A stretch of DNA of 64,000 bases from Calditrichales bacterium (lineage in GTDB: Bacteria; Calditrichota; Calditrichia; Calditrichales; J004). The stretch is taken from positions 1,280,001 through 1,344,000 of the forward strand of contig OZ254086.1 in the NCBI GenBank assembly GCA_965267575.1, written 5' to 3'. The translations under genes and the position numbers were made by a program. Positions 5,579 through 29,856 of this stretch are shown here, piece by piece (within the stretch, counting starts at the first letter, position 1; each line of letters starts with the position of its first letter). The notes under the pieces were generated by a model that ran no database searches, was not told the origin of the DNA, and saw only the letters and a program-made list of their open reading frames with translations.

Positions 5579-7930
5579 CTATTTCAAAACCATCATTTTA
5601 CGTACCTGTACTTTATTGCCCTGTACAAGCCTGTAAATATAAATACCGGTTGGCAACGAGCTGGCGTCAAAATGTGCCTGATGCACTCCGGCCGGGAGAT
5701 TGCCGTCAACAAGTGTTGCAACTTTCTGGCCCAATACGTTATAGACGATGAGACTCGTATAGCCAGCCCGTGCCACACTGAAATCAATGGTGGTAACGGG
5801 GTTGAACGGGTTGGGATAATTTTGACCCAGCTTAAAGCTGAGCGGTTTATTCTGATCTTCAAAAATTGAGGTAACTGTTCGTAGAGCCCATACTTCCGAG
5901 AAATTACTGCTGCCATATTCGTTGGAGGCCGATACGCGCCAGTAATATCGCGTGTAGTCATTAAGACCGGAGATGGTGATTGAAGTATCGGTGACCACCG
6001 TATCCAGAATTACGGTTCCCTCCTGGAAGAAGGAGCTTGTCCCCAGCTGATAGCGATAAACATCCGCGGAATCAGCAGGATACCACTCAAATGTCATCTC
6101 CAAAGGAATATTGACCGTGCCGCTGCGTGGGAAACTGAGTTCCGGGGCAACCGGAAAACCGGTTGTAAAGTTGTATGCCTGCGAGTAATCGCTGTGTCCG
6201 GCGGCGTTACCTGTTTTTGTTCGCCAGTAATAGGTGCTTAAGCCCTCCAGTCCTGTAACACTGGCTTGCGTATCCTGAACCGATTCCGTTAATACAATCG
6301 ACTCAAATTGATTGTCCGCAGCCACTTCAACCGTATATGCCCCGGCCTGGTCAACAACCGACCATGAAAGCATGGTCGTGTCCGATTGGTTTTTGGCCCC
6401 GTCAGCCGGCATAACAAGCGTCGGTTTTTCGGGCGGCGTTACGGTAATGACGTTGCTGGGAAAACTCTCGTTATAGTTACGGTCCAGCGCGCGCACCAAA
6501 AAATAGAATTGATCCTGATTTTCCTCAGGGATCGGCGGGCTGAAAGATCTTTTGTTTGTGACATCCAGGATGTATTGCGGCAATTCCAGGTCTTCGATCA
6601 ACGGGGCCTCTTCAAATCTATAAATCACATAGCGCGAAGCCGAATCCCCGTCGGTCGCCTGAAAAGGCAAATCCCACTGCAAGCTGAAAACACCGTTGCT
6701 TTCATTCTGCGCGTAGGCCAGGTTTTGCGGCTCATTGGGCGGCACAATATCCTTCCAGTCCATAACGGGCAGCAAAGCAGGGTAGCGATAATAATTGTTC
6801 TTAAGGCTATCGGTTACCCCTTTGGGGTTCTCAAAAAAGTTATCCGCGCGGAAGAAAACGCTGCCCAGGCTGTTTTCCGTTTCGCGGTTCAGGCGAATTT
6901 GACGAGGTATTTCATCGGAAGCCCAACCGGATTGGCGGTATAAGGCCTGGCCCGGGTAGAGATGGCGTCCGTTTATCCGGGCATCATCAGCCCACCAGGG
7001 CATCAGTTTGCCGTAGTCCTGTCCGCCGCCAAAAGGCCAGTATAGCTGTGGCGTCAGGTAATCCAGGTATTCTCTGTCCATCCATGTCGGCGCGTCACAA
7101 TAGATCACATTATAGGCATCCAAACCTGTTATGCCCGGCGGCACGCCGTTTTTCCAAATACCGAAAGGACTGATACCAAATTTTACATGCGGCTTAATGG
7201 CCTGAATACTGTCAGCCACCATGCCAACAAGGATATTTACGTTCTCGCGGCGCCATTCTCCGCGATTGGTAAAATCACCTTTATAAGCATCCCATGTTTC
7301 CTGGTCGTCGCTGTTGGTCGTTCCCTCATAAGGGTAGAAATAATCGTCAAAATGAACGCCATCGACATCATAGCGTCGTACGACATCCGTGATAATACCG
7401 GCGACATACTCGCGTACATCCGGAATGCCCGGATCAAGCATGATCAAGTCATTCTTTTTAAAATGCCACTCGGGATGTTCACTATAAATGTGATCGGGAG
7501 ATAGAGTATAGGTACCTTCTTCCCTGACCGATCGATAAGGATTAAACCAGGCATGAAGCTCCATGCCACGGGCATGTGCTTCTTCTATCGCAAATTCCAA
7601 CGGATCGTAATACGGTGAAGGCGGCGAGCCTTGCGAACCTGTAAGCCAGTATGACCACGGTTCATAAGGTGAGTCATAAAGCGCGTCGCATTCCGGCCGG
7701 ACCTGAAAGATTACCACGTTTATGCCAACTTCTTTCAATTCATCCAGCAGGGTTATCAATTCTTCTTTCTGTGCCGCGGTACCCGTAGTCGGGTTAGCCG
7801 GCCAGTCCAGATTGACAACGGTGGCTATCCATGCCGCGCGGAATTCGCGTTTTGGAGGGTCAGCCTGCGCAAAGCAGGAGGCCTGAAATCCAAAAAGCAA
7901 AAGCAAAAAAATGTATCCGATCCTATTCAT
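5579..7930 (-). CDS. Secreted GHL10 (YddW/DigH-like) glycoside hydrolase with FN3/Ig-like domains and a T9SS type-A CTD
   Basis: Signal peptide; EFRAAWIATVVNLDWP, GMELHAWFNPYR, YDVDGVHFDDYFYPY, FGISPFGIW, DYLTPQLYW; YYWRV FN3-like repeats; C-terminal QNYPNPFNP...GIYIYRL...RKMMVLK. Confidence 0.9.
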   Translation of the reverse strand: MNRIGYIFLLLLFGFQASCFAQADPPKREFRAAWIATVVNLDWPANPTTGTAAQKEELITLLDELKEVGINVVIFQVRPECDALYDSPYEPWSYWLTGSQGSPPSPYYDPLEFAIEEAHARGMELHAWFNPYRSVREEGTYTLSPDHIYSEHPEWHFKKNDLIMLDPGIPDVREYVAGIITDVVRRYDVDGVHFDDYFYPYEGTTNSDDQETWDAYKGDFTNRGEWRRENVNILVGMVADSIQAIKPHVKFGISPFGIWKNGVPPGITGLDAYNVIYCDAPTWMDREYLDYLTPQLYWPFGGGQDYGKLMPWWADDARINGRHLYPGQALYRQSGWASDEIPRQIRLNRETENSLGSVFFRADNFFENPKGVTDSLKNNYYRYPALLPVMDWKDIVPPNEPQNLAYAQNESNGVFSLQWDLPFQATDGDSASRYVIYRFEEAPLIEDLELPQYILDVTNKRSFSPPIPEENQDQFYFLVRALDRNYNESFPSNVITVTPPEKPTLVMPADGAKNQSDTTMLSWSVVDQAGAYTVEVAADNQFESIVLTESVQDTQASVTGLEGLSTYYWRTKTGNAAGHSDYSQAYNFTTGFPVAPELSFPRSGTVNIPLEMTFEWYPADSADVYRYQLGTSSFFQEGTVILDTVVTDTSITISGLNDYTRYYWRVSASNEYGSSNFSEVWALRTVTSIFEDQNKPLSFKLGQNYPNPFNPVTTIDFSVARAGYTSLIVYNVLGQKVATLVDGNLPAGVHQAHFDASSLPTGIYIYRLVQGNKVQVRKMMVLK

Positions 7931-7947
7931 TACACATTCCTCAAGTT

Positions 7948-7980
7948 AAAAAAAGGGCACCCAGGTATGGATGCCCTTTT
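7948..7980 (-). terminator. Intrinsic terminator after the 855-aa T9SS cargo gene
   Basis: Minus strand reads AAAAGGGCATCC-ATACCT-GGGTGCCCTTTTTTT. Confidence 0.8.
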
Positions 7981-7998
7981 AGACTTTTACATTAAATA

Positions 7999-10566
7999 TT
8001 ACTTGATCAAAGTCATTTTACGTGTATCCGTAAAATCTCCGGACTGCAGTTTATAAATATACATGCCGGAAGAAAGCTTGCTGGCGTCAAAAGAAATGCT
8101 GTAATCGCCTGCGGACAGGTTCTTATCAACAAGTGTCAATATTTCCTGACCTAGAACGTTATACACTTTCAGCACCGTTTTACCGCTCTTGGCAATCGTA
8201 AAGTCGATTGTCGTTGTCGGGTTGAACGGGTTAGGATAGTTCTGCTTCAGCGTATAATTTTCCGGAGTTACAACATTTTCATGACGTCTCAGCGACGTGA
8301 ATACACCGGTGTACTTATACACAACACCGTTGTTGAACGATCCGGTGTACATAACCGTACCATCGCTATTGAAAGCAACACCACGAGGTCCGTCGGTGTC
8401 ATCACCGTTATCCTGCGGCATCCATACGTAACCGTAGGTATTATCACGCGGATCAAACCATACTATAGCATTTACGTCCTGCGTACCGGCATATGCGTTA
8501 TCCTGGGATACCCAGAACTTGCCATCGGAACTGCGGTCTAATGTAACCGACTGTGCTTCGAAGATAGGTTTGCCGGTGTTGTCATTTCGGATACTGTCAG
8601 CCAACGGATAATTGATGAAGTCCGTGGATTCGTAAATATAAAGCGAGTGAACGCCTTCAGCCAGGTTACCCGGAATGAGCGTCAATCCGTCAGGCGAAAC
8701 ATAGATACCACGATGGAATCCACCTGCCAGAGGATCAAGCGTGATCGTTTGAGTTACGTCAAACGTAGCCGGATTAATAACGTTGATGAAGGGATTGCCG
8801 CCAAATACAACCGCACCTGTGTAGATAAATCCTTCATCGTCTACCATCGGTGCACCTTGCGACAGACCAAGCTCAACACGTGCCAGCGTACTACCGTCAC
8901 TCGGATCAAGCTTCAGTGTTGTACCGCCACTCTTGGTATAAATGATGTTACCATCATTGTCCGTTGCCAGTCCGCGGCAGCCTGTTAAGAAGACAGTCGA
9001 GTCCCCACCGCCGTCTGCTTCAACGGTAGTTGAGTCAAGGGTCATGAATTCCGAGCCATCTTCGTTATAAACAAAGACACCACCGGAGAATGTACCAATC
9101 CAAAGACGGTTATTACCGTCTACAGCAACACCGTGTACGGCACCCGTTGTATCCACAACCCCGTCATAGGAGTATTGGATTTGGTCAAGCTGCCATACGC
9201 CGGGGCTTACGTCCGGTTCTACATTAAGAACAACCAATGCCTTGGTTTCCGGACCAAAGCTTGTGGTGTACATTACTTCGGTACCCAGGTCATCATCAAT
9301 ATTAGCAAGGCCAATAACATTCCAGAAACCGCTAGGTGCATATTCGGAGTCAATAATTTCATGAGTCCAGTTATTAATGTTGCTTACGTCGTCCTGTGCG
9401 CCAGTGTACTCTAAGCGGAAAATGGCTGCGTTGGGCTCAGCGAAACGCGAACCTACGATATAGTCGGTACGGCCGTTAACATCAACATCACCGATAGAAC
9501 TACCGCCAAGACGAATGCTTTCACCGTAAGCGGAAAGGTCCGCCACTAGCGTGCCTTTAAGTGAATCGCCTTCGGCATCATACTCATATACATAAACGCC
9601 GGCAGGTGAATCGTCCTGAATAAAAGGCGTCCAATAAGTACCAAAGATAATTTCCGGCTGGGCGTTTCCATCAATATCATAAACCTCAACGCTATTGAAA
9701 GGACCACCACCACCTGCAACAGGCGGCAGATCCTCGAGCAACTCGTAAGTGTCAGCGGCCGTTGCGCGAACGCGCGTGGTAGTAATTTCGTCGAACAGGT
9801 AGATGGTGCCGTCAAGAACAGCAACATCCCACTTGTTTTCGGCACCGGAAATCGGGCCACCGGAAACAGTCAAACCATTGGATTCAACCGTCCAGGTTTC
9901 GCTGCCGTCGCCGGCATCCGGAACATCATCAACGGAGAGGACACCAAAATACCAGCCACTGGATGTACCGGTACGATCATTAAAGATCACTTCTTTTGTG
10001 CCGTCGCCATCAACGTCATTAACAACGAAATTAGTTGGGCGCAGGTTAAGATTGTCCTGATTGGTCATGGTGAATTGCGTATTTGGCAGAAAACCGCCAA
10101 AGCCATCGGAAACACCCATATCATCAGAACCGCCACCTACTGATTCAAAAATCACGATACGTGGAGGATTAGCTACACCGGCAAAATTATTAACCGGCCC
10201 CCAGATGATCTCTTCTTTACCGTCTTCATCAAGGTCATCAACGGTAAGGGCAGGCCAGGTGTTTTGGGCAATACCTGCGAGTTCGGTGCTCCAAACATTG
10301 TTCCAGCCACCAGCGCCGTCTTGTTCCAGCTTATATAAACGTGGAACGAGCTCATCCGGCGTATCATTAGAGTTGTCGTTGGCCATAAAAATTTCCAACA
10401 AGCCATCACCGTCGGTATCAGCACCGGCAACGATATTACCAATGCTTCCGACGTTTAGATTAAGATCAGGAATCTGAATAGAATCCTGACGGCTCCATTG
10501 TGCGAACAGTTGTGTTGCGCAAAACAGAACCACAAAAATGAACGTGGTATAACGAACGTGAGTCAT
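7999..10566 (-). CDS. Secreted acidic protein with FG-GAP/VCBS-like Ca-binding repeats, a second beta-propeller and a T9SS type-A CTD
   Basis: Signal peptide (..LFAQ); repeats DTDGDGLLEI, DLDEDGKEEI, DVDGDGTKEV, DIDGNAQPEI; NHL-like GPRGVAFNSDG; CTD QNYPNPFNP...RKMTLIK; AGGAGG RBS. Confidence 0.85.
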   Translation of the reverse strand: MTHVRYTTFIFVVLFCATQLFAQWSRQDSIQIPDLNLNVGSIGNIVAGADTDGDGLLEIFMANDNSNDTPDELVPRLYKLEQDGAGGWNNVWSTELAGIAQNTWPALTVDDLDEDGKEEIIWGPVNNFAGVANPPRIVIFESVGGGSDDMGVSDGFGGFLPNTQFTMTNQDNLNLRPTNFVVNDVDGDGTKEVIFNDRTGTSSGWYFGVLSVDDVPDAGDGSETWTVESNGLTVSGGPISGAENKWDVAVLDGTIYLFDEITTTRVRATAADTYELLEDLPPVAGGGGPFNSVEVYDIDGNAQPEIIFGTYWTPFIQDDSPAGVYVYEYDAEGDSLKGTLVADLSAYGESIRLGGSSIGDVDVNGRTDYIVGSRFAEPNAAIFRLEYTGAQDDVSNINNWTHEIIDSEYAPSGFWNVIGLANIDDDLGTEVMYTTSFGPETKALVVLNVEPDVSPGVWQLDQIQYSYDGVVDTTGAVHGVAVDGNNRLWIGTFSGGVFVYNEDGSEFMTLDSTTVEADGGGDSTVFLTGCRGLATDNDGNIIYTKSGGTTLKLDPSDGSTLARVELGLSQGAPMVDDEGFIYTGAVVFGGNPFINVINPATFDVTQTITLDPLAGGFHRGIYVSPDGLTLIPGNLAEGVHSLYIYESTDFINYPLADSIRNDNTGKPIFEAQSVTLDRSSDGKFWVSQDNAYAGTQDVNAIVWFDPRDNTYGYVWMPQDNGDDTDGPRGVAFNSDGTVMYTGSFNNGVVYKYTGVFTSLRRHENVVTPENYTLKQNYPNPFNPTTTIDFTIAKSGKTVLKVYNVLGQEILTLVDKNLSAGDYSISFDASKLSSGMYIYKLQSGDFTDTRKMTLIK

Positions 10567-10674: not shown

Positions 10675-11919
10675 TTATTGATCGCGCCCGTAATAAGGAG
10701 CTCCATTTTCGCGCATATCTATGCGTAAAACTTTTGAAGAGGAACTCGATGTTTTTTGGGCGGCATACAAATACAGGCCTGTTCCCCAATGAAAATCAAT
10801 TATTTCAGGCCCAATCAGTTCGGGATAATGTATGTCCAGTGTCTGGCTTGCTTCATCAAAGACGTATATAGCATCCGGCTCGGCAGATGTACCGATAAAA
10901 ATCCTTCCCTCTTCTGAGACAGTAATATCATTTATACCGGCTTGATTTAAAACAGAACTTTGTTCTGCAGTTAATAACGGAGAAATAGAGGACAGCCCTC
11001 CATTTCCATCTATGGTTCCCTTATATAATGCGACTGCATCTGAGGAATCCGGATGACGTAGCGTGAAATACAAATTGTTGTTAAAAACACGAAGACTCGA
11101 AACCGGCCTGTCAAAACTCTGGACAACAGTACTCGAAGAGCCATCCGGCATGATGGATGTTATGTTGCCGGCAGCAATTACTTGTGTGCCTTGTGTATAT
11201 GAGCTATCGATGGCCGTATAGATATAAAATGATCCATCAAAATCAAAATCACGGGGGATACCACGGAATGACGCGAAAGAGCTAAAACTGCCACTGGTAG
11301 TATCAAGTTTAACTATTTGACCATTTCTAATAGTAACAGACGCATAGAGTTCATCGTTTGGGCCTATTTGCATTGCTTCTACAAGCTCAAAGGCCATGGC
11401 ATCGTTAACAAGCTTAGTAGATTGTCCCGGTATGGTTTTTCTCAGTACCTTACCCTGAATATATTTAAATACTGTCCCCGCACGGTTCACGGCTACGGCC
11501 AGAACCACTTCTCCCGGAGCCAAGGTGCCGAATTCGGCGACTGCCGGATTGAGCTTATAAAAGGCAGAATCACTGTATAATTCCGAAGAACGTATGCCTA
11601 CTCTTACTCTAAACCTGTCTTTTGCTGTCTTTGGCGTTTTAACCGTAAGCTCGTTTTCGGAAGCTGATAGCACTTCGGCAACAATTTCATCAAAAACAAC
11701 AAAATTCTCCGCGGGTACAGGCGAAAAGCCATTGCCCGTAATGGTCAATGTGCCTACACCGGCGAGGGCACTGTCTTCAGGCAGAATATTGGTTATGACT
11801 GGTGCCGTTCCCGGGTCCCTGTCCGGATTGTATAAGCTGTCTGTTGGCTCTTCGCTGCAAGACAGGACCAATACAATCAGTGACAAAACTAATATATGCA
11901 TGGGGCGCATGCGTTTCAT
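10675..11919 (-). CDS. Lipoprotein with an IPT/TIG domain and a beta-propeller
   Basis: Lipobox VLSC; PVITNILP...TLTITGNGFS...ASENELTVKTP is IPT/TIG-like; repetitive beta-rich C-terminal region. Confidence 0.8.
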   Translation of the reverse strand: MKRMRPMHILVLSLIVLVLSCSEEPTDSLYNPDRDPGTAPVITNILPEDSALAGVGTLTITGNGFSPVPAENFVVFDEIVAEVLSASENELTVKTPKTAKDRFRVRVGIRSSELYSDSAFYKLNPAVAEFGTLAPGEVVLAVAVNRAGTVFKYIQGKVLRKTIPGQSTKLVNDAMAFELVEAMQIGPNDELYASVTIRNGQIVKLDTTSGSFSSFASFRGIPRDFDFDGSFYIYTAIDSSYTQGTQVIAAGNITSIMPDGSSSTVVQSFDRPVSSLRVFNNNLYFTLRHPDSSDAVALYKGTIDGNGGLSSISPLLTAEQSSVLNQAGINDITVSEEGRIFIGTSAEPDAIYVFDEASQTLDIHYPELIGPEIIDFHWGTGLYLYAAQKTSSSSSKVLRIDMRENGAPYYGRDQ

Positions 11920-11940: not shown

Positions 11941-12948
11941 TTAAAAAGAAAATCCAAAGGCAAAACGGTGAACATCGCCGAAAACACCAAAAGGTGTGTA
12001 GGCATAATCCACGTTCAGATCAAATCCTGTAACTTCCTGCCGCAGGCCGGCGCCAAAAGACATGCCTTCTTCATCTGTTGGCGAAGTGAGTCCGGCGCGC
12101 AATGAAACCTGCTTGAGAAATGTATACTCAAGACCCACATCAATCTGCTCATAGTAGTCTCTGGGGTGAGATGCATCTATCGCAAGCAATAAATCATGCC
12201 TGTCAGAATCGAGGTCCGTCAGATCAAGCATGTCCATGGCAACACCGATTTCAAATGTCAGCGGAAGTTCAAATGCCTCTTCGTAATACTGTACCTGCTG
12301 TGAAAAATTGCGCACGTACATACCAAACGTCAGGCTTTGATAACCGGTTTTATAAAGAATACCAAAATCGAAGGCTAAAACATTGGCATCAAATTCGCCC
12401 GTAACCACCTGCTGATCGGCATTTTTAAAATTGACCGCACCGCCTGTAAGGTTTTGATACACATATTTCATGTGACCGCCAATAGAGAAACGATCGGTAA
12501 GCGCCCGCGCATAGCTAAGACCAATGCTGTAGGCAATCGGAGAAAACTCGCCGGTGTCGAGAAAGCCTTGTTCGTTTTCGCTTTTGATTGATCCCTGAAA
12601 GCTGCCGTAGTCCGGAGCGATATAGGTAAGACCAAAAACGCCATACTGTCCACCGGAAGGGCTGTAGGAAAGTGTGGCGAACTGATATTGAAAATCAGCT
12701 ATCCAGTTTAGCTGACCAATGGTTGTTGAAACCATGGAAGGCAAGCGTGCCATACCTGCAGGGTTGTAGAGCATAGATGTGCTTCCGCCTTCAAGGGCAA
12801 CCGTGGCACGGCCAAGCGCGCTCATCCGCGCATCCAGCGACAGGCTTAAGAAAACCATGCCTGTTTGTGCCAGCTTTTGGCGTTCAGCACCAAAGCCGGA
12901 TGCTACAGTAAGCAAGATGACTATGAGAGTTAATAATTTGTTTTTCAT
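11941..12948 (-). CDS. PorV/PorQ-family (UPF0164-like) outer-membrane beta-barrel, module 2
   Basis: Signal peptide; KLAQTGMVFLSL..DARMSALG, YNPAGMA, FDFGILY, FELPLTFEIG, DYAY..FGVFGDVHRFAFGFSF with a terminal Phe. Confidence 0.85.
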   Translation of the reverse strand: MKNKLLTLIVILLTVASGFGAERQKLAQTGMVFLSLSLDARMSALGRATVALEGGSTSMLYNPAGMARLPSMVSTTIGQLNWIADFQYQFATLSYSPSGGQYGVFGLTYIAPDYGSFQGSIKSENEQGFLDTGEFSPIAYSIGLSYARALTDRFSIGGHMKYVYQNLTGGAVNFKNADQQVVTGEFDANVLAFDFGILYKTGYQSLTFGMYVRNFSQQVQYYEEAFELPLTFEIGVAMDMLDLTDLDSDRHDLLLAIDASHPRDYYEQIDVGLEYTFLKQVSLRAGLTSPTDEEGMSFGAGLRQEVTGFDLNVDYAYTPFGVFGDVHRFAFGFSF

Positions 12949-15057: not shown

Positions 15058-15064
15058 ACGTCCC

Positions 15065-20683: not shown

Positions 20684-20690
20684 TTCAATA

Positions 20691-21719
20691 TCAGAACCGT
20701 ATTGATAAGCTGAATTTTTGGGCGCTTTCCAGCCTGTTCCAGTCGGCATAAGCCCAATCTACACGCAAATGCGTCTGGCCCGCCAGGCGGATATTGGCCC
20801 CGAGACCATAAGTGAGGCCTTCTTCCGTTTCATCCTGAAACAGCGACTTATAGCCGGCCCGAAGAAAAACAAGCTCCTTCCAGCCATACTCGAATCCTGT
20901 ATTGACGGCTTCAAAGTTATCATTGGGCTGAATGGCGTCCAGGGCCAGTGTGAGGCGATTGTATTCTCCGATCTCAATATCTTTGGCAAAGCCAACCTGA
21001 AAACGCAGCGGCAGGTTGTAGGCCAGCATTTCATACTGAGCGTTTACAATTTCCACGTTTCCGATATTGTCCGGGTCAGGGTCGGTGGCAAACTTGCTGT
21101 CGCGACCTTCCAATTTCATTTTGTTGCCAAAATTGCTGATGGAAGCCCCAAGACGAATGCCCCAGAAAGGCGTCTCGAAAAGCGTACCCACATCGAGCGC
21201 AACGGAAGTGGCCGTCATGTGCCAGATGCGCTGGTAAATAAACTTCCCGGTAAAACCGATGGAAAATTTATCTGTTAGATTGCGGCTGTAAGCGAGGCCC
21301 GCGGCTATATCCTGCGTGTCAAAACGCTCGCCGGTGCCGTCCGGTTGCTGAACTGTCCTTACTTCCATTTCACCGGACTGGAAAGAGGCCACCATGGCGC
21401 CCAACGCTCCAAATGAACCGAGATTGAGCACGACCGCACCATAATCAAATGAAGTTCCGGCCAACCAATCAACATGTGTAAACATGGCTTCATTGGCATA
21501 AATGCGCGACAGGCCTGCGGGATTATGATGAATGGCGCTTACATCATTGGCCACGGAAGTGAAAGCTCCTCCCATACCAATAGAGCGCGCGCTGGGTCCG
21601 ATTTTTAAAAACTGGGCTACGGTAGTTCCGACCTTGGACACGCGGTCACCATCCTGAGCCAGGCCGGCGGAAAAACCGCAAAAATAAAATATAAATGTTA
21701 TTGCTAATAGCTTTTTCAT
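20691..21719 (-). CDS. PorV/PorQ-family outer-membrane beta-barrel, module 1
   Basis: Signal peptide; KVGTTVAQFLKIGPSARSIGMGGAF, NPAGL, ALDVGTLF, LPLRFQVG, FLRAGY, DWAY...QKFSLSIRF; GGAGG RBS. Confidence 0.9.
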   Translation of the reverse strand: MKKLLAITFIFYFCGFSAGLAQDGDRVSKVGTTVAQFLKIGPSARSIGMGGAFTSVANDVSAIHHNPAGLSRIYANEAMFTHVDWLAGTSFDYGAVVLNLGSFGALGAMVASFQSGEMEVRTVQQPDGTGERFDTQDIAAGLAYSRNLTDKFSIGFTGKFIYQRIWHMTATSVALDVGTLFETPFWGIRLGASISNFGNKMKLEGRDSKFATDPDPDNIGNVEIVNAQYEMLAYNLPLRFQVGFAKDIEIGEYNRLTLALDAIQPNDNFEAVNTGFEYGWKELVFLRAGYKSLFQDETEEGLTYGLGANIRLAGQTHLRVDWAYADWNRLESAQKFSLSIRF

Positions 21720-21738: not shown

Positions 21739-24700
21739 TTATTTTATGATGGCGAACTTGCCGACAGTGGTACCAATGCCCGGGGCATCGACGTGATAAA
21801 AGTAGAGACCGTATGCCACCTCAATGTTATCACGTGTTAAAAGGTCCCAATAAACTTTGCCGTCATCTACGCTGCTGTCATGATGCAGGGTACGCACCAA
21901 TTCGCCAGCCGTCGTATAAATCCTGATTGTGCATTTCTGCGGCACTTTGTCAAAGTAAATGCGCCGGAAGCCACGCTCGTCCCTCGCTGTTGGATTGGCC
22001 GGCTCAATGACGTTTGTAGCCACATAAGGGTTTGGTACCACACGAATGTCATCGAGCTTATTGCGGGCCAGCGCTTTATCCTCGCGTGCGCCTTCCGTGG
22101 TAAAACGGAAAATATCACCGGGATTAAATGGCTTAAAGGTAGCCAGCAGGAAGATATCGCCGTTGGCCGGCGCATCACTCGTATCACGGGTTTGAGAAAC
22201 AAGCTGCCACACAGCGTTGCGTGTGTTGGTGCCATTCTCAAAGATGAAAATATCTTCACCCGGATCCCATGTGCCGTTGCGTGTAGCGGCTTTTTCCAGC
22301 ACAAAGAATTTCGATTTCGTGTTTTCCGTAACATTCCACAACTGGAAGTTAGTGGCAATGTCGTTTATTGATGAATCCTGCATATCCGTAAAAAACCTCA
22401 GCTCATAATCCGCGGGGTAAAAGCTGGCCGAATCACGCTCCAGAAGGGTAAATTCCATCTCTGTCTGTGCGCTGCTGTTCCAGCCGGTCAGGTCTTCATT
22501 AACGCGGAATTCTTCGTTTTTAATAACCAGCTGCATGCCATCAAAGATGGGGTTGGTTTCCTGCGAATCCACGGCAAAACTGCGGAAAATGGGGAAGTGC
22601 GTATACTCGGCCGTATAACGGGTGTCGTCCATCATGCCCGCGCCGGGTACGCTGTCCGGGTCGAAAACAGTGATCGTACCAAAGCGGGCGTCGAGATCGT
22701 AATCTACACCTTCCGTGAAAGTCTCCCCACTCTCAGAACGTACAACAAATGACTCAGGATTAACGAATTGCTTTTGCAATGAGACAGACCTGCCGAAAAA
22801 GGAGATGAACATCTCTTCAATTGGTTTTTGATCCTCTACGGTATACTCCAGACCCTCCGCAGTCGAATCAGCGAACTGGATCTCAAAGGTATTGTTATCC
22901 TCTACGGCAGATTCGTCCAGAATGCTGACAAATATGGTCCCCGTGGAGCGGCCGCCGGTTTCGTTTTGAATTCCGTCGGTCAGGCGTGGCGCTACGTAAC
23001 CTGCTGTTCTGCTCCGCGGAATCACAAGGGCGGTATTAACATCTGTTGAATAGGTGTTTGTCGTCGGGTCAAAAGTAACAATCTTGGCGCACTCCGATGG
23101 CGGAATACCCAGGCTGTCGCTGCCGTGATCATAGGAAACGATCGCATAAAAATATTGCTGACCATTGATCACATTGTTGGAATCAATAAAGGTATAGCGC
23201 AATCCTGTATTATTGCCAAGATTATAGGAAACACCGCGCCCCGTATATGGAACGTTACTGGGCCCGCTGTATTCGTTGTCCAGGTCAAAGCGGGCATCTA
23301 CCCCGGTTACCGTTTTAAGCGGCTCAAATAAAAATTTGGTACCGTTTATGTCTGTGATGGTTTGAATATCAAGAAAGCCGGGATCTGTGCTGCGGTAAAT
23401 GACGTATCCTTCGAAGTCATTTTCGCCGGAGACGGCGTCAAAGGAGGATTCCGCCACCTTATCCCAGTAAAGTGTCACTTTGCGGTCGCCGGGCACGGCG
23501 GTAAGGTTTGGCTTTGCGGGCGGTTTGGCAAACTGGTAACCGCTGTCATAAATGCGCTGCACCGTTTCAGCATTTTGAATCAGGTCATTACGGTCTTCCC
23601 CGATTATGAGGGCGATTGAAAAGCGCTTAATGGCTTCGCTTATCTGGTCATCCGGTGTCGTTTGGATCGATCTTAAAGTAAAGCGTCCGGAGCCATACAA
23701 AAACACATAATCGCCCGGATCGCGGGAGCCGGCAAGCGTGTCAAATTGGCCCGGCTGAATATAACGGCTCCACATCTCTTCATCGTCGCTAATCTGGAGA
23801 CCGGAGAACGACGGCTGAGCAAAACTTGTCAGACCGATCATGTCCGATTCATCGATGTCGGTAAATTCAAAATTGGGCTCACCGGGTTTGGTGATATCAA
23901 AAGGATCGCCGGCAGTGGGTACACCGTCACCTTCACCTTCATCAAGGGTATTGGGAACGCCGTCTATGCCCACGTCATCGGTTTCGGCGTTCCAGTCGCC
24001 ATCGTTGTCGATGCCGTCCGTCCAGCTTTCATCGATCATACCGTCTTTATCATTGTCGATACCGTCATTGGCCAGGCCCGGACTTTCCAAAAACTTATAG
24101 CCCATATAACCCGGAACACGGCCGGCGATATCGCTTCGTCCATCGTTATCCCAGGCAAAGGTCATATTAAGATCACGGTTAAAGTCAGCCAGGTCATCCT
24201 GCCAGTTATCCGGGCCGCCGATGTGCGGATCGCCCCACATACCAAAAATGACACGGTTCAGGTCGTAAGCGCCTTTGTTGCGGATTTTATAAATTAAAAA
24301 GATCGCGTCTTCAGCCAGGGGGTTGGACCACTGATACACGCGGCCTTCCACTTCAAGCCCCAGGCCCTTGCGCACTGAATCTCCGGGGTAGGGGTAATAC
24401 TCAAATTCGCGATTGTTCACATCATCCATAACAAAGAAAGATTCCTTGTCAGCATTGGTGGCGCCTTGCCCCAACGCACCGGGCCACACATAATCGCGCA
24501 GGTTTTCATTATACCAGGCGTCGGGCCATGTGTCGGGTTTGCCGTCGGCGTCCTGATCCGGCGCGTCATTGGTAGGCATGGTATTTTGCGTGCTGTTCAG
24601 ATAAACATTAATACCGTCGTCGCTAACCTCAAGCGGTTCCCAGCCCCAGCGCTCGGTAAAGTCTGGCGAGACTTCACCGCCATTGGAGATCAATCCATCG

Positions 24701-25116
24701 GAAATGGCATGTACCACCCAGGTGGAATCGTTCTTGCGAACAACATCAGGATGACTGCCGGGCGGCACGGGAATTTCAGACGCCACAAAGGGGCCGAACT
24801 CGTAACCGTAGCCAAGGCCTTCCCAGATAATGTCCGTGGTGCGGTTACCCGGTGCGGAAATGGAGCCGTAGTTCCAGATCTGCGTGGTAATCTTGTTACC
24901 GTTCATTATAACATCCTGGCGCAGGATGGGATTATCTGCCGCTGTTTTTTGGAAACGGTTATTATACCATTGCCACCAGGCGTCTACCTGCTCCGGCGAC
25001 CACTCTTTTTGCGGGCCAAAACGATAAACAGAATCCTGCTTGGATAGCTGCGCGGAAAGCGGTACCGCCAGACAAAACAACAATGTTACAAATACAATCT
25101 TTTTCATAATGTGCAT
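21739..25116 (-). CDS. Secreted 1125-aa protein with Asp-rich Ca-binding repeats, an FN3-like domain and a variant T9SS-like CTD
   Basis: Signal peptide; DGIDNDKDGMIDE and DGIDNDGDW repeats; PPAKPNLTAVPGDRKVTLYWD..FEGYVIYRS..YFYAIVSYD; CTD IRVVPNPYV...CTIRIYTTAGELV...WDL...AYGLYFYHV...KFAIIK. Confidence 0.85.
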   Translation of the reverse strand: MHIMKKIVFVTLLFCLAVPLSAQLSKQDSVYRFGPQKEWSPEQVDAWWQWYNNRFQKTAADNPILRQDVIMNGNKITTQIWNYGSISAPGNRTTDIIWEGLGYGYEFGPFVASEIPVPPGSHPDVVRKNDSTWVVHAISDGLISNGGEVSPDFTERWGWEPLEVSDDGINVYLNSTQNTMPTNDAPDQDADGKPDTWPDAWYNENLRDYVWPGALGQGATNADKESFFVMDDVNNREFEYYPYPGDSVRKGLGLEVEGRVYQWSNPLAEDAIFLIYKIRNKGAYDLNRVIFGMWGDPHIGGPDNWQDDLADFNRDLNMTFAWDNDGRSDIAGRVPGYMGYKFLESPGLANDGIDNDKDGMIDESWTDGIDNDGDWNAETDDVGIDGVPNTLDEGEGDGVPTAGDPFDITKPGEPNFEFTDIDESDMIGLTSFAQPSFSGLQISDDEEMWSRYIQPGQFDTLAGSRDPGDYVFLYGSGRFTLRSIQTTPDDQISEAIKRFSIALIIGEDRNDLIQNAETVQRIYDSGYQFAKPPAKPNLTAVPGDRKVTLYWDKVAESSFDAVSGENDFEGYVIYRSTDPGFLDIQTITDINGTKFLFEPLKTVTGVDARFDLDNEYSGPSNVPYTGRGVSYNLGNNTGLRYTFIDSNNVINGQQYFYAIVSYDHGSDSLGIPPSECAKIVTFDPTTNTYSTDVNTALVIPRSRTAGYVAPRLTDGIQNETGGRSTGTIFVSILDESAVEDNNTFEIQFADSTAEGLEYTVEDQKPIEEMFISFFGRSVSLQKQFVNPESFVVRSESGETFTEGVDYDLDARFGTITVFDPDSVPGAGMMDDTRYTAEYTHFPIFRSFAVDSQETNPIFDGMQLVIKNEEFRVNEDLTGWNSSAQTEMEFTLLERDSASFYPADYELRFFTDMQDSSINDIATNFQLWNVTENTKSKFFVLEKAATRNGTWDPGEDIFIFENGTNTRNAVWQLVSQTRDTSDAPANGDIFLLATFKPFNPGDIFRFTTEGAREDKALARNKLDDIRVVPNPYVATNVIEPANPTARDERGFRRIYFDKVPQKCTIRIYTTAGELVRTLHHDSSVDDGKVYWDLLTRDNIEVAYGLYFYHVDAPGIGTTVGKFAIIK

Positions 25117-25134: not shown

Positions 25135-27870
25135 TTATAGGTCGATGCTCATGCCCACGCGTATCTCACGCGGTGCACGATAAAAGTCAGGACGTGTAAT
25201 GTATTCTTCGTAGGTATGCACGCCTGGCGTGTCATATTTTTCGATAAGTTCTTTTGGCTCATCGGCGCTGCGGTTGGCAAAAGTATAACCCGCGCGGCCC
25301 GTATCGTTAAATACGAAACGTTCGTTAAGCGAATCAAAAAGATTATAAATCTTTACGAAGAACTGATAGTTAATGTCTTTAAAGGCAAAATTATAAGACA
25401 TCCTTAAGTCTACGCCCTTGTATGTCGGTTTTCGGTCGGAGTTGGGTTCCGCGTCATACGTAGAGTTGAACAGAAAAGGTGAATAGGGGTAGCCCGTGCT
25501 CATTTGCCCGATCGCGCTAACCAGAAAACCCTGAAACGGCCGTACGGTCACCGAAGCATTCAGCACATGCTGCTGGTCCCAGTCCAGCGGAATAATTGTG
25601 CGGATTGCCGTTTGCCCAGACAGATTACTGAAATAAAAAGCCGACGGATCATTATCATTACCTTCTGCGACCTGGAACGTATAGTCAATATTGGCCGCAA
25701 CCGGGTCGCCGCCCATCATGCGCTTGGTGAAGGAGAGCGTAAGCCCCTTCACATTGGCATAATCCAGATTGCGATAGAGGCTGTAGTTACGGATATCACC
25801 GCTTAAGGCGCGGAATTGCAATGATTGCGTAGCCAGCAAATCGCGGATATCCTTGTAAAAACCGGTAACGTCAATGGCGTAGCGGTCGCTGATCTGCTGC
25901 TGCAGACCCATTTCATAAATAACCGTTTTTTGCGGATTCAGGTTGGCATTGCCAAAAGTAAACGATCCGCTCACGGGTACTTCAAATTCCGGGTTTACAT
26001 ATAAGTTGGCCAGAGAAGGCATCTGGAAAAAGTGGCCGTATGAAAAGTGAATAATGCCGGTCGCGGTTATCGGGAAGGAAGCACCCAAACGCGGGGCAAC
26101 CATATGTTTATGTTCCGCTTCCTTCAACTCGCCGTCCGGTTGCAATACATCTACCGCGTAATCGAAATCAGAGAAAAAGTAATCGTAACGAAGGCCCGCA
26201 TTGATAATAAAATCGTCGTACTCAATTTTATCCTGGATGTATGCCGACATCTGCCGCGGATAAGTTACATAAGCGTCGTGTGTCGGTGAATCCAGGCCGA
26301 GTACCGTAGGCTGTTTATAGCGATTGCGGTCATAGAGTATCGTGAAATTTTCGCGGTCCAGCTCGTAAAGGCGTGCTTCCAGTCCCGCCTTGACCAGGTG
26401 ACGGTTGTTAACCTGGCTCGTTATATCAAACTTGCCAAGGTATGTAAATGAGTTGGAATAAGAGTGCCCCATGGAAGTACCGCCAAAAAGAAACTGGACA
26501 CCCGCAGGGGAGCCCTGGACTTTGTCCGTGGGAACGTAGCGCGGATCACCTGGATCTTCATAAAGATAAGTGGTTGAGCGCTGAAAATTGACGGCTGCCT
26601 TCAGTTCATAAAACGTCTTTGGAGAAAGAGTATGGGTGAAGAGCAACGAGTTTTGTGCGCTCCAGGAACGGCTGGTCGGCAAACCTTCCGGGTTAAATTT
26701 CCACAGGTGTGAATAAGATTTGGAGCGACCCTGGTTGAAAAGTGACTGCGTGCGCAGAGTCATATTGGGCGTAAGCTTAAACTTCAACTTGCCCATCAGA
26801 TTCAGACCTTCGCTTGGATTCATCGGGACAATAGCATTATCACCGCCAAGTTCAATATACCACTCGTCATAGGTTCTCGTGATGGTAACGATTTGGGAAA
26901 AGTCATCTTTATAGCTGATTGTCTCTGTTTTCAAATCAAAATTTGCAGAGTCCGATGGCAGGTGCTCACGGCGGCCATAGAGATAACCCTCGCTCTTGGA
27001 ATAACGCCCGGAGAGGAAAAAAGTATGATCATTGCTGCCCAGGAATGAGAGCGGGCCGGAAAAGGTACCTTCTATATTGCGGTTGGCAACCGCGTCAATG
27101 TCATCAATGTTTAAGAAAATATCGTCGTGCGAACTGACAAAGTCGCCGCTGTAAAAACTTAAAAATGCTTTATATTTCTGGCCACCGTCTTTGGTCGTCA
27201 GGTTTACAATACCGCTCATGGCGTTACCGTATTCGGCGTTAAACGCGCCGCTCACCACAGACATCTCCTGGATGGCATTGTTGGCAACGGTTACAGACAA
27301 TCCGTTTGTGGAATACGGATTTGCCACAGAAACACCGTCAACCAGGTAGGCAATCTCGTTGGAGCGGCCACCCTTGATGTGCAGTTCGCCGCCGGCACCC
27401 TGGGTTACGCCGGCCTGAGTCAGCATAACATCCGTAAACGTTTCAACCGGAAGCGCCGCGATTTCTTCAGCGCTTGTTATTTTTTTGGATGCGGTAAGGT
27501 CCTTTTGTACAAGCGGCCTGTCCGCAACAACCGTGATCTGCTCCAGCTCGAGCGTCTCTTCACTCATCTGAAAGTTAATGATGCGTGATTGGTCGGCGTT
27601 GATAACCACGTTTTCTACGCGCTTCGTGGCATAGCCGATCATGCTACATTCCACGACATAAGTGCCGGGCTGAATATTCAGAACGAAGTACTCGCCGTTG
27701 GCATCACTTGAAGCGCCCAGTGATGTGCCCTCTATAATAATGTTGGCGCCCGGCAGTGGTTCGCCGCTGCTCTGGTCAATTACCGTTCCAAGCAACTTGC
27801 CGGTATTTCCGGCAAATGCCGAAGACCCTATCAGCAACAGAAATAAAATGGCTTGAAAAAAACGTACCAT
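25135..27870 (-). CDS. TonB-dependent receptor, module 1
   Basis: GKLLGTVIDQSSGEPLPGANI; LHIKGGRSNEIAYLVDG; SGAFNAEYGNAMSGIVNLTTKDG; PRLGASFPI..HFSYGHFFQ; C-terminal APREIRVGMSIDL. GGAGG RBS supports the ATG at 27870 (track start 27924). Confidence 0.92.
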   Translation of the reverse strand: MVRFFQAILFLLLIGSSAFAGNTGKLLGTVIDQSSGEPLPGANIIIEGTSLGASSDANGEYFVLNIQPGTYVVECSMIGYATKRVENVVINADQSRIINFQMSEETLELEQITVVADRPLVQKDLTASKKITSAEEIAALPVETFTDVMLTQAGVTQGAGGELHIKGGRSNEIAYLVDGVSVANPYSTNGLSVTVANNAIQEMSVVSGAFNAEYGNAMSGIVNLTTKDGGQKYKAFLSFYSGDFVSSHDDIFLNIDDIDAVANRNIEGTFSGPLSFLGSNDHTFFLSGRYSKSEGYLYGRREHLPSDSANFDLKTETISYKDDFSQIVTITRTYDEWYIELGGDNAIVPMNPSEGLNLMGKLKFKLTPNMTLRTQSLFNQGRSKSYSHLWKFNPEGLPTSRSWSAQNSLLFTHTLSPKTFYELKAAVNFQRSTTYLYEDPGDPRYVPTDKVQGSPAGVQFLFGGTSMGHSYSNSFTYLGKFDITSQVNNRHLVKAGLEARLYELDRENFTILYDRNRYKQPTVLGLDSPTHDAYVTYPRQMSAYIQDKIEYDDFIINAGLRYDYFFSDFDYAVDVLQPDGELKEAEHKHMVAPRLGASFPITATGIIHFSYGHFFQMPSLANLYVNPEFEVPVSGSFTFGNANLNPQKTVIYEMGLQQQISDRYAIDVTGFYKDIRDLLATQSLQFRALSGDIRNYSLYRNLDYANVKGLTLSFTKRMMGGDPVAANIDYTFQVAEGNDNDPSAFYFSNLSGQTAIRTIIPLDWDQQHVLNASVTVRPFQGFLVSAIGQMSTGYPYSPFLFNSTYDAEPNSDRKPTYKGVDLRMSYNFAFKDINYQFFVKIYNLFDSLNERFVFNDTGRAGYTFANRSADEPKELIEKYDTPGVHTYEEYITRPDFYRAPREIRVGMSIDL

Positions 27871-27917
27871 GTATCCTCCCAGGGAAATAAAACTTTGCCA
27901 GTCATGATAATGAATTT

Positions 27918-27946
27918 TTGGCAAATATCAATTTTTTGATTATACT
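27918..27946 (+). promoter_or_regulatory. Candidate sigma70-type promoter for the 607-aa gene
   Basis: TTGGCA-N17-TATACT in the AT-rich divergent intergenic region. Confidence 0.55.
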
Positions 27947-28032
27947 CTTCAACGCCCAATATATAAAGCAAGGCTTTACAAATCACAATTAATTTACTTA
28001 CCAAACAAACCTAAACAAAAGGAGGAGAAAGT

Positions 28033-29856
28033 ATGCGTCGTTCGCTTACTGTATTCGCTATCCTCGTAACGATGGCCTTTATCAGCCAGGGATTTGCACA
28101 GGGAACTGAAGCTTCCCGCGTTGCAACTGCCTACAGCTTCCCACCGGCTGACACATTTTTCACCGGTCTGCAAAGTATCCGTGGTGTTAACGTAGCCGTC
28201 GATCCTTTCGGGGATGGAGTTAATCTTATTTCAGCCACAAACTATTTTACCGGTGGCGCGGTTCACGTTTTTGCCGCTGTCGGTATGGACTCCATCGAAC
28301 TGAAGTGGAGCTCCCCGCCCGGAGTCGGTGGCGGTGGCTCTACACCTCGTCACTCCGCTTTTGGAGATCTTGACAATGATGGGGTTGTTGAAATCATCTT
28401 CCAGAATTCGGACCGTGGTTTCTACATTTATGAGTGGGACGGGGTTCCCGGAAGCTATAACTTCGGTGATGCTCCTGCACAGATCATAGATGATACCTAT
28501 TTTCCCGCGACAAGCGGATATACGGAATGGTTCGACATTTCCGATGTTGACGGCGATGGTGCCAACGAGTTGATCACGGCTTATAATGCCGGTGGTTCTG
28601 TGAGCGACGGTCTGTTTGTTATCAGCGCCAACGGCGAATGGGAAACAGGAGATCCCGGTTTCTCAGGATTTAATGTTGAGCTGGAAGCACTGCGTTCGGA
28701 TCCCTTTTATGGAGCCCTTGGTTTTGGCGGAAGCCCCATGGGCGCCTGGGCAGCTCAGCTGGACGGTACAGGTAACGAAGAAGTCTTCTACACCAACTGG
28801 AATTTTAAGAATGTTACCGTTGTAAGAGCCACGGCCGCAGACACCTATGAAGCAGCCGATACGACAGGCGGTAATGGTAACCTCTTTATTACATGGCCCG
28901 ATGACAATACCGCGCTCTTTGGCGGCTTTGCCACAGATATCGATGGCGATGGTCGTGAAGAAGCCTATCTGTCGCAATTCGGTAGCGCTAATGCCGGCAA
29001 ACTGCACATGATCTATTTTGACGAAGGCTCTGACCTCAGCAAAATCGATTCCAGCAATCTGGCAACAATTGATGTTACCGACGTGCTGAACGGCAGTATT
29101 TTCGGACATGGTGTTGGTGACATTGACCAGGATGGACGTCCTAACATTTACATGGGCTTTGTTTACGGCAGCAACGTTGCTACCGCGGAATTCCAGGGTG
29201 GTGACAAGACAGATCCTGCCAACTGGACAACGGACGTACTTTACGAAGGCGAAGATGACATCTATACATCGGTAACCTATAGCGATAGCCTGGGCACAGT
29301 CGATACATCCTATGCCATTGACAACTCCTTTGTTGCCAAGCTGGGCGCCGGATATTTTGACCTGGACAATGACGGCTTTGAAGATATCATTCTGCCTTAC
29401 CAGGCTTTGAATGACAGCCTTGATGTTACCGAGCAAACCTGGGATGCCGATTCCGGAGCATACGTCGTAGATGCCCAGTATAAAGTGGTTAACCCCAAGC
29501 GCTGGTCACTGCGTGTACTGGAAGGCACCATTGGCAGCAGCATCGAAGCCAAAGACCTGACAGTTATTACACCGAATGATTACAAGCTTAAGCAAAACTA
29601 TCCCAATCCTTTCAACCCGGAAACAACGATTGAATTCGTAATGCCGGTACGTAAAAAGATCACCATGACGATCTACAATACCCGCGGCCAGAAGGTTAAG
29701 ACACTTCTTAAAGACGCGTCTTATCCGCAGGGTACGCACAGTGTTAAATGGGATGGTACAAATGAAGCCGGCCAGCAAGTGGCAACAGGCATGTATATCT
29801 ACGAGTTTAAGTTTGGTAACTTCACCAAAAGCAAGCGCATGATGCTTGTTAAGTAA
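28033..29856 (+). CDS. Secreted FG-GAP/VCBS-repeat protein with a FlgD-Ig-type T9SS CTD; paralogue of 7999..10566
   Basis: Signal peptide; GDLDNDGVVEI, DVDGDGANEL, DIDGDGREE, GDIDQDG, DLDNDGFEDI; QNYPNPFNP...WDGTNEAGQQVATGMYIY...KRMMLVK; AAGGAGG RBS. Confidence 0.87.
   Translation: MRRSLTVFAILVTMAFISQGFAQGTEASRVATAYSFPPADTFFTGLQSIRGVNVAVDPFGDGVNLISATNYFTGGAVHVFAAVGMDSIELKWSSPPGVGGGGSTPRHSAFGDLDNDGVVEIIFQNSDRGFYIYEWDGVPGSYNFGDAPAQIIDDTYFPATSGYTEWFDISDVDGDGANELITAYNAGGSVSDGLFVISANGEWETGDPGFSGFNVELEALRSDPFYGALGFGGSPMGAWAAQLDGTGNEEVFYTNWNFKNVTVVRATAADTYEAADTTGGNGNLFITWPDDNTALFGGFATDIDGDGREEAYLSQFGSANAGKLHMIYFDEGSDLSKIDSSNLATIDVTDVLNGSIFGHGVGDIDQDGRPNIYMGFVYGSNVATAEFQGGDKTDPANWTTDVLYEGEDDIYTSVTYSDSLGTVDTSYAIDNSFVAKLGAGYFDLDNDGFEDIILPYQALNDSLDVTEQTWDADSGAYVVDAQYKVVNPKRWSLRVLEGTIGSSIEAKDLTVITPNDYKLKQNYPNPFNPETTIEFVMPVRKKITMTIYNTRGQKVKTLLKDASYPQGTHSVKWDGTNEAGQQVATGMYIYEFKFGNFTKSKRMMLVK

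Follow-up and report, generated by a model that had tools for sequence, protein, structure and literature searches.

It is by SusC/SusD pairs that polysaccharide utilisation loci are identified and counted, and only in Bacteroidota proper do these pairs account for glycan uptake. Much of the organic matter of sediments, hot springs and the dark ocean is broken down by the sister phyla, whose genomes hold many TonB-dependent receptors (TBDRs) and almost no SusD. Here we describe a locus within a stretch of 64,000 nucleotides (nt), referred to as the window, from a Calditrichales bacterium (assembly GCA_965267575.1, contig OZ254086.1, positions 1,280,001 to 1,344,000, forward strand). At this locus a TBDR, a large secreted protein (BIG) bearing a putative type IX secretion system (T9SS) tail and an outer-membrane barrel of the PorV/PorQ family are encoded in succession, and this module recurs. 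The three products, BIG, barrel and receptor, probably take the place of the SusC/SusD pair by which Bacteroides captures nutrients.

The resemblance to SusC/SusD (RagA/RagB) begins with the receptor, a TBDR of ∼900-1050 amino acids (aa) that combines a carboxypeptidase-regulatory-like domain with a plug. It extends to the organization of the genes: directly after the receptor comes a surface partner that diversifies along with it, the pair is multiplied and it lies among secreted glycan-active proteins. The partner itself is very different: whereas SusD is a helical tetratricopeptide-repeat lipoprotein, BIG is an all-beta putative T9SS substrate of 700-1200 aa without a lipobox. Furthermore, the module adds a third gene, that for the barrel. 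It would work like SusC/SusD, yet it contains no SusD, and its receptors score far below the cut-off of the SusC/RagA model TIGR04056.

The barrel and its cargo recall a second group of systems. In the PorQ-PorZ and PorV-PorU pairs of Porphyromonas gingivalis, a PorV/PorQ-family barrel is combined with a T9SS substrate, as appears to be the case here, and the tail of the substrate is described as being retained as an anchor (PMC10202324); in the modules the tail is predicted to lie on the barrel loops. These known pairs are single-copy and housekeeping, whereas the genome under study harbours ten extra paralogous pairs, each wired to a TBDR, and the propellers of PorZ or the protease of PorU are replaced in the cargo by a carbohydrate-type domain. 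In the SprB-SprF system of Flavobacterium johnsoniae, which joins a type-B C-terminal sorting domain (CTD) to a PorP/SprF barrel, the cargo gene also stands by that of its own carrier, which is described as remaining attached and serving as the anchor (PMC10202324, PMC10994853). Type-B pairs include no receptor, however, and the models differ: the type-B tail model TIGR04131 (cut-off 35 bits) matches only one of the ten module tails, at 12.1 bits, and the PorP/SprF model TIGR03519 (cut-off 90.55) gives 22.5 bits for the second barrel of the window, BAR_B, and no match for the first, BAR_A. The BamG-BamH pair of the Bacteroidota BAM (beta-barrel assembly machinery) also features a FadL/PorV-like 14-strand barrel whose loops are reported to hold an extracellular protein (PMC12578637). 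A further difference is that BamH is, in that account, a surface lipoprotein component of BAM, and BAR_B matches the BamG model only at E 0.0073 with 15.4 bits (cut-off 250). The barrel half of the module represents a new and multiplied use of anchoring of the PorQ-PorZ type, not of the type-B/SprF kind.

Partners other than SusD are on record, and they come closest to the present idea. Non-SusC transporters of Bacteroides are reported to have non-homologous partners encoded next to them (Price, Deutschbauer and Arkin, 10.1101/2023.03.17.533168). The lids in that account are lipoproteins, whereas here the partner would be held by a barrel through its secretion tail. The module combines two known kinds of system in a new way. 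Full-text searches of a corpus that takes in few subscription journals and no supplements brought up no paper in which a TBDR is tied to a partner with a T9SS tail and to a barrel of the PorV family; such a description could exist elsewhere. In the text of the Caldithrix abyssi genome paper the terms SusC, SusD and T9SS are absent, and TBDRs are mentioned only for B12 and thiamine (PMC5317091). If the proposed reading is correct, the triplet would provide a genomic marker of substrate-utilisation loci in the sister phyla, type IX secretion and TonB-dependent import, so far studied apart, would be joined, and PorV/PorQ-family barrels would serve widely as protein anchors.

The module within and beyond the genome

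Eleven minus-strand open reading frames (ORFs) span 5579-27924 of the window, with spacing that ranges from an 8-nt overlap to 147 nt, and a single plus-strand gene diverges from them at 28033-29856; the latter is a paralogue of the gene at 7999-10566 (phmmer 8e-20). Two triplets are present, both in the order TBDR, BIG and PorV/PorQ-family barrel and with gaps of 15-19 nt: module A consists of TBDR_A, BIG_A and BAR_A, and module B of TBDR_B, BIG_B and BAR_B with a lipoprotein gene, lipo331, inserted between receptor and BIG_B. A first-pass annotation of the window had outlined eleven co-oriented genes with short gaps and one divergent paralogue, in agreement with the ORF calls and the phmmer match, and had read the triplet order twice, with a lipoprotein inserted in the second copy, which Pfam and NCBIfam bear out. 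Identity between the two modules amounts to 27% for the receptors (830 columns), 26% for the barrels and 34% for the BIG tails; the triplets are old paralogues.

The modules of the window are two of many. When the 3796 ORFs called in the genome were searched by phmmer with the window proteins and the middle genes were aligned, 10 receptor/BIG/barrel modules were recovered, in nine of which the order is receptor, BIG, barrel. The alignment disclosed a tail common to all ten middle genes, including one that phmmer had missed. In three copies the junction between receptor and BIG is of 0 nt or overlapping. The nine best non-self matches of TBDR_A in the genome are the receptors of the nine other modules (E<=3e-67), the best receptor outside the modules following at E 9.5e-36, and BAR_A likewise finds the nine other module barrels as its nine best non-self matches. 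As mutual best matches, the module receptors form one clade. Co-diversification of the three families, a check set beforehand, is borne out by Mantel correlations over the 10 modules of 0.80 for receptor and BIG, 0.84 for receptor and barrel and 0.73 for BIG and barrel (each p<=2.5e-4), a pattern which indicates that the modules were duplicated and inherited as units and from which physical contact does not follow. The surroundings are distinctive too: type-A-tailed genes occur within three genes of 9/10 modules, a figure that none of 20000 random placements reaches, and the flanks include GHL10, heparinase II/III-like, beta-helix, CBM20 and CBM9/CBM11 proteins.

A scan for BIG_A relatives, with one genome per species and the four closest BIG paralogues as query, returned at least 600 pattern matches, of which 569 were confirmed as relatives. 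Neighbours were analysed for the 80 best loci (35-57% identical), intervening ORFs of <200 aa or BIG fragments being allowed; because of the query, these 80 are orthologues of module A only. Their labels comprise Ignavibacteriales, Melioribacteraceae, Rhodothermales, Neomarinimicrobiota/Marinimicrobia, KSB1, Calditrichaeota, Kryptoniota and others. Of the 63 loci with enough flank, 60 have a receptor directly upstream of BIG, and a barrel is encoded directly downstream in 70 of 73 testable loci. Synteny of the triplet across phyla had also been set as a check in advance, and both neighbours are in place in 56 of the 60 loci testable for the pair. The repetition of the triplet, with 10 modules in the genome and 56/60 testable loci elsewhere, is far beyond chance. 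All but one of the listed tails of these loci end in [GIVL][KR][FL][AGV][VLI][IL]K. Of 50 testable loci, 34 have an orthologue of the divergent gene 28033-29856 (E<1e-30) at most two genes upstream of the receptor, and in 30 the orthologue is on the same strand; this gene is therefore a frequent fourth member of the module that is inverted here. Four contigs with a full module (L044, L066, L073 and L112) are labelled Caldisericaceae, Methanobacteriota archaeon, Syntrophomonadaceae and Acidobacteriota; mis-binned contigs or imprecise labels are the probable source of these names, rather than genuine hosts.

Within the phylum, where the genomes are kin and counts overstate independence, the BIG family was found in all 61 sampled genomes, with at least 7-15 matches each, and orthologues of BIG_B (E<=1e-40) in 42 of the 61. 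The order receptor, BIG, barrel is kept in 15 of 16 module-B loci, BAR_B following BIG_B in 15/16. In the same set lipo331 comes directly after TBDR_B in 10/16 and a second lipoprotein gene, TIG414, after the barrel in 9/16.

Putative secretion tails and their barrels

Both window barrels are clear members of the PorV/PorQ family, with 212.2 (BAR_A) and 184.9 bits (BAR_B) on NF033709, a model whose cut-off of 90 is exceeded by 17 matches in the genome. Neither reaches the equivalog models for PorV (NF033710, cut-off 250) or PorQ (NF033711, cut-off 220): BAR_A scores 80.7 bits on PorV and 91.7 on PorQ, and BAR_B 76.6 and 82.5, respectively. Module barrels in general obtain about 58-80 bits on the PorV model, compared with 256 for the true PorV of this genome, and are private paralogues distinct from the housekeeping protein. 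The possibility that they are FadL-type channels for hydrophobic substrates was rejected on their 185-212 bits in the PorV/PorQ family and the absence of any Pfam FadL/Toluene_X match. As a separate observation, module 1 does contain a 527-aa barrel of the FadL/Toluene_X family (2e-12; L026:1816-3396, genome 8813-10396), located after its PorV-family barrel, so that two distinct barrels of the FadL superfamily stand side by side in this module.

The housekeeping components are encoded far from the modules: PorV (256 bits) at genome 384497-385531, PorU (845 bits) at 3478070-3481339, a PorZ of 262.7 bits (cut-off 260) whose C-terminus reads GKFAVIR, and a best PorQ at 342986-343906 which, with 215.8 bits, remains just below the cut-off of 220. 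Judged by PorV, PorU and PorZ, all over their cut-offs, and by ∼160 type-A-tailed ORFs, the genome encodes type IX secretion. Two further PorV-family barrels have conspicuous neighbours. At genome 405480-410812 a PorU-like ORF (1684-aa open frame, 282 bits, below the PorU cut-off) lies directly upstream of one such barrel, in a region that locus L017 (genome 403980-407906) overlaps. At 1934064-1952792 a 5607-aa type-A-tailed protein is followed by a 635-aa ORF with a PorV-family barrel, a pair without a receptor.

The tails of the BIG proteins belong to a particular class. When the 110-aa C-terminal tails were compared with NCBIfam, the C-terminal end of the PorZ model was the best match of all ten module tails, at E 1.8e-10 to 1.7e-3 and always far below the whole-protein cut-off. 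The type-A model TIGR04183 reaches its cut-off of 23 bits in five of them. BIG_A matches the PorZ tail at 2.4e-05 and TIGR04183 not at all at E<=1, and BIG_B matches the PorZ tail at 4e-06 and TIGR04183 with 17.6 bits, below the cut-off. The two tails are homologous (hhalign 99.4%); that of BIG_A forms a beta-sandwich in an AlphaFold2 (AF2) model, with a predicted local distance difference test (pLDDT) mostly >84. A tail model places the genome's own PorZ in the same tail class as the module BIG proteins. Three tandem proteins of 670-950 aa (L035, genome 792957-799804) likewise end in PorZ-like tails, with GEKK or QEK as the last residues; they have neither receptor nor barrel nearby and resemble BIG_A weakly.

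The genome itself offers a natural tail swap. A stand-alone paralogue of BIG_A (phmmer 1e-171; L034:3633-6596, genome 2947633-2950596, plus strand) has neither receptor nor barrel beside it. Its tail is of the ordinary type A and ends in RKMMLIK, with 44.4 bits on TIGR04183 and no PorZ match, and it is devoid of the insert of ∼15 residues after the PNP motif. In this swap, tail type tracks the presence of a barrel. What PorZ-like tails may entail is suggested by the known systems: the tail of PorU is described as uncleaved and staying on PorV, that of PorZ as uncleaved and staying on PorQ, in a T9SS review which also speculates that tails are shielded from cleavage by cognate PorV-like barrels (PMC10202324). 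T9SS substrates are reported to bind the extracellular loops of their cognate carrier (PMC10994853).

The interface was modelled for BAR_A residues 22-342 (67-row alignment) and BIG_A tail residues 1010-1125 (73-row alignment). The interface score ipSAE was 0.89, 0.89 and 0.90, and the best of 3 controls gave 0.00. The ipSAE mark applied is reached by 116 of 157 solved complexes and by 2 of 215 mismatched pairs, counts which hold roughly with custom alignments. The runs share at least 91% of contacts, with partner pLDDT of at least 78. In the model the tail touches the barrel with, among other parts, its PNP strand (1025-1030) and its last strand (1118-1125), and BAR_A contributes contacts every 30-40 positions (86-89, 113-135, 163-170, 203, 230-237, 267-268, 297-300, 327-331), a spacing that would correspond to successive loops at one end of the barrel.

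The first-pass annotation had proposed that the large protein is exported by the T9SS and held at the surface by a PorV paralogue of its own, and this proposal is supported in silico. Because the tails are PorZ-like in 10/10 modules, the paralogue provides a natural swap and the complex is predicted, anchoring by a private barrel is well supported at that level. Given the barrel family, the tail type, the swap, the predicted interface and the PorQ-PorZ precedent, it is quite likely that the private barrel acts first as the carrier of BIG and then as its anchor.

Receptors, partner folds and the proposed role of BIG

Both window receptors carry an N-terminal carboxypeptidase-regulatory-like domain followed by a plug: CarbopepD_reg_2 (PF13715) is matched at 1.9e-21 in TBDR_A and 2.6e-20 in TBDR_B, and Plug (PF07715) at 5.6e-11 and 1.6e-05, respectively. 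On the SusC/RagA model TIGR04056 (cut-off 368.25 bits) TBDR_B obtains 66.5 bits and TBDR_A 69.1 bits, and these matches cover only model positions 2-127 and 3-208 of 981. SusD is equally elusive. No SusD Pfam family matches any of 13 locus proteins at E<=0.01, nor the lipoproteins X454, lipo331 and TIG414 even at E<=10. Across the 4.73-Mb genome PF07980 has one match, next to a different receptor, and PF14322 and PF12771 have none; 27 Plug domains thus face one SusD gene.

X454, encoded after BAR_A, is the one helical lipoprotein of SusD-like size at the locus. Its AF2 model, built with 21 homologues, has a pLDDT of 89.1, and the closest folds are those of a PpiC parvulin domain (Z 9.1), PrsA (8.6), SurA (8.2) and PEB4 (7.9), on which grounds X454 is modelled as a SurA/PrsA-like parvulin chaperone lipoprotein. 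A sequence search of the PDB returned nothing at E<=10. No SusD-type chain is among the matches listed for the fold searches of X454 and BIG_A, an absence from lists which does not amount to exclusion. The earlier claim that the locus has no SusD-type lipoprotein has accordingly withstood both the profile check and the fold of X454. In the phylum, 25 of 61 genomes have homologues of X454, which are encoded right past the barrel that accompanies the BIG_A orthologue, and SurA-like lipoproteins flank two further modules of the genome; as a guess, such a protein may aid the folding or escort of large outer-membrane parts.

The fold of BIG_A points towards carbohydrates. ESM Atlas clusters of BIG_A and BIG_B are annotated as 'hypothetical protein' with no common Pfam family, and Foldseek with whole BIG_A gave only weak multi-Ig/Fn3 matches at a template modelling (TM) score <0.2. 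The AF2 model of BIG_A (73-row alignment) has a pLDDT of 86.3 and a predicted TM score of 0.81. Comparison of this model by VIA-align with 48,161 representative chains matched residues ∼61-690 to the N-terminal beta-supersandwich domains of enzymes, at Z 18.5-19.9 with 231-258 residues aligned and a root-mean-square deviation (rmsd) of 2.8-3.1. Among these are cyclic glucan synthase (Z 19.9, 255 aligned, rmsd 3.0; 8rf9_A is listed with the same values), dextran dextrinase (Z 19.3), glucoamylase (Z 18.7) and glucodextranase (Z 18.5), along with 1lf6 (Z 18.7, 231 aligned, rmsd 2.8) and 1ulv (Z 18.5, 238 aligned, rmsd 2.9); GH94 phosphorylases (Z 17-18) and aldose 1-epimerases (Z 12-14) follow. 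The model indicates a galactose-mutarotase-like beta-supersandwich with Asp-rich loops, as a fold assignment only. It is followed by a domain of the Fn3 type, more beta-sandwiches and finally the tail.

These elements can be assembled into a mechanism. Sec would take BIG across the inner membrane and the T9SS across the outer one, a route to which the tail of BIG points. The private PorV/PorQ-family barrel would recognise the PorZ-like CTD and act as a dedicated carrier at the translocon. The tail would not be cut and would stay on the extracellular loops of the barrel, as in PorQ-PorZ and PorV-PorU, and because of this retention the barrel would be the membrane anchor of BIG. At the surface the supersandwich domain would bind polymer and hand it to the co-encoded TBDR for import, BIG thus filling the role of the SusD lipoprotein, and perhaps also that of the SusE/F-type binding proteins, of Bacteroides. 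As a whole, we regard a three-part outer-membrane nutrient-capture unit as the best explanation of each module and as somewhat more probable than its alternatives taken together. The same moderate confidence attaches to the proposal that BIG binds polymer and works with the co-encoded receptor, which draws on fold, strict linkage, co-diversification and genomic context. That BIG forms a true lid over the receptor, as the first-pass annotation suggested, is less likely than not; the carbohydrate-related fold predicted for its N-domain fits substrate capture and does not show a lid. A bolder version can be put forward only tentatively, namely that BIG, secreted by the T9SS, fixed by a PorQ-like barrel and never relieved of its tail, is the obligatory substrate loader, or functional lid, of the TBDR, that the three-part machine, rather than SusC/SusD, is the main route of glycan uptake in Calditrichota, Ignavibacteriota, Marinimicrobia, KSB1, Kryptoniota and Rhodothermales, and that the housekeeping PorQ-PorZ pair is one specialised member of a far larger family of surface proteins anchored by barrels.

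A number of observations weigh against the nutrient-capture unit. Function cannot be read from a common fold, and enzymes such as aldose 1-epimerases have the supersandwich as well. Homology between the N-domains of BIG_A and BIG_B is weakly supported: hhalign reported the tail alone between the two families, and the N-part of BIG_B matches the BIG_A profile over 53 columns only (86.6%, E 4.5e-6). The complex of a substrate tail on the PorV loops has been solved (PMC10994853), so that resemblance to it may account for the high score of BAR_A and the BIG_A tail; nor does the prediction show a preference of the tail for the private barrel over the housekeeping PorV. Tail class and barrel are not tightly coupled throughout the genome, as a barrel adjoins only one of 8 further variant-class tails recognised by the tail model, whose classing of the ten module tails is circular since those tails trained it; among 160 type-A-class ORFs a barrel adjoins 4, two of these being mere module flanks. 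Gene linkage and co-diversification would also be expected from inheritance of an operon as a unit. Deviations from the canonical order exist as well: in the module at genome 4386511-4395933 the barrel directly follows the receptor and BIG is two genes upstream, and a member is missing in 4 of 60 loci (L039, L041, L055 and L115). Finally, in module B lipo331 and TIG414 could be the real partners of the receptor.

Among the alternatives, the one that survives best holds that BIG and barrel are a T9SS cargo-carrier pair unrelated to transport, as part of a coat, an adhesin or a cell-bound enzyme, and that the receptor is partnerless and merely co-regulated. Other PorV-family barrels do adjoin tailed proteins in the absence of a receptor (the PorU-like ORF at 406526-410812, the pair g01690/g01691 and the 5607-aa protein by a barrel fusion), and the enzymatic occurrence of the supersandwich would suit such a role. 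We nevertheless judge it unlikely, as a receptor is found directly upstream in 60/63 testable loci of several phyla, in three modules receptor and BIG abut at 0 nt or overlap, the distances of the two families correlate with r=0.80, and the module receptors form one clade; moreover, the BIG paralogue that has no receptor is also without barrel and special tail.

Less probable still is that the true surface partner of the receptor is a lipoprotein, lipo331 or TIG414 in module B, and that BIG is an accessory binder or enzyme of a utilisome-like assembly. The frequent association of both lipoproteins with module-B loci (10/16 and 9/16) speaks for it, as does the reported occurrence of lipoprotein lids encoded beside non-SusC transporters (10.1101/2023.03.17.533168). 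Against it, module A and most other modules have no such lipoprotein, that of module A having a SurA-like chaperone fold, and lipo331 is missing in 6 of 16 module-B loci, whereas BIG and barrel are present in 15/16.

Lastly, the TonB-dependent barrel might serve the export or surface assembly of BIG instead of import, as reported for Oar and the PopC protease in Myxococcus, and Oar-type receptors share the N-terminal carboxypeptidase-regulatory-like domain of the module receptors. A TonB-dependent transporter needed for protein secretion has been reported (PMC6434023), but this alternative is highly improbable here, where a T9SS tail and a T9SS carrier-type barrel would already explain the export of BIG, the genome has canonical PorV, PorU and PorZ and the modules sit among secreted glycan-active proteins.

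Gene content of the locus and its surroundings

The proposed nutrient-capture modules of the window and the genes encoded with them are listed in Table 1.

Table 1. Genes and domains of the two-module locus, in window coordinates
Feature	Position	Strand	Basis or remark
FG-GAP protein, type-A tail, divergent	28033-29856	+	Pfam/NCBIfam
TBDR_A, TonB-dependent receptor of module A	25135-27924	-	ORF start TTG 27924, first ATG 27870
BIG_A, 1125-aa secreted protein	21739-25116	-	signal peptide; no Pfam family at E<=0.01
BIG_A variant (PorZ-like) C-terminal sorting domain, end GKFAIIK	21739-22071	-	NCBIfam tail match
BAR_A, PorV/PorQ-family 14-strand-type barrel	20691-21719	-	NF033709
X454, lipoprotein	19385-20749	-	likely start ATG 20683; no family; fold comparison
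TBDR_B, TonB-dependent receptor of module B	16076-19237	-	Pfam
lipo331, 331-aa lipoprotein between TBDR_B and BIG_B	15065-16060	-	lipobox in translation; no family assigned
BIG_B, 702-aa secreted protein, tail end KKFVVIR	12964-15072	-	PorZ-tail match
BAR_B, PorV/PorQ-family barrel of module B	11941-12948	-	NF033709
TIG414, lipoprotein with IPT/TIG domain and propeller-like part	10675-11919	-	TIG 9.7e-10
FG-GAP protein, ordinary type-A T9SS tail	7999-10566	-	Por_Secre_tail 6.8e-12, FG-GAP_3 1.3e-06
GHL10 glycosyl-hydrolase-like protein, fn3, ordinary type-A T9SS tail	5579-7930	-	GHL10 6e-68, Por_Secre_tail 3.2e-10

A scan for promoter-like sites in the window was at chance level (25 seen, 28.1 +/- 6.2 expected), and terminator-like sites numbered 33 (21.7 +/- 5.3 expected). 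A hairpin of 12 pairs with a T-run is located at 20635-20661 on the minus strand, directly after the BAR_A stop and where the signal peptide of X454 is encoded; it might partially terminate transcription between the triplet and the gene for the chaperone, or its presence may be due to chance.

Elsewhere in the window, no Pfam family is matched at E<=1e-5 by any of three successive minus-strand ORFs at 46483-50363 (403, 298 and 565 aa), and a 518-aa plus-strand ORF at 41266-42822 shows a weak match to the N-terminal beta-propeller family of PorZ (2.7e-06, 28.2 bits, cut-off 27). Closer to the locus, a minus-strand gene at 1365-4850 encodes a 1161-aa protein with an alpha-amylase (GH13) catalytic domain and without a T9SS tail. 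A 212-aa plus-strand ORF stands between this gene and the locus; the GH13 gene may lie outside the operon, and its presence hints at an alpha-glucan substrate.

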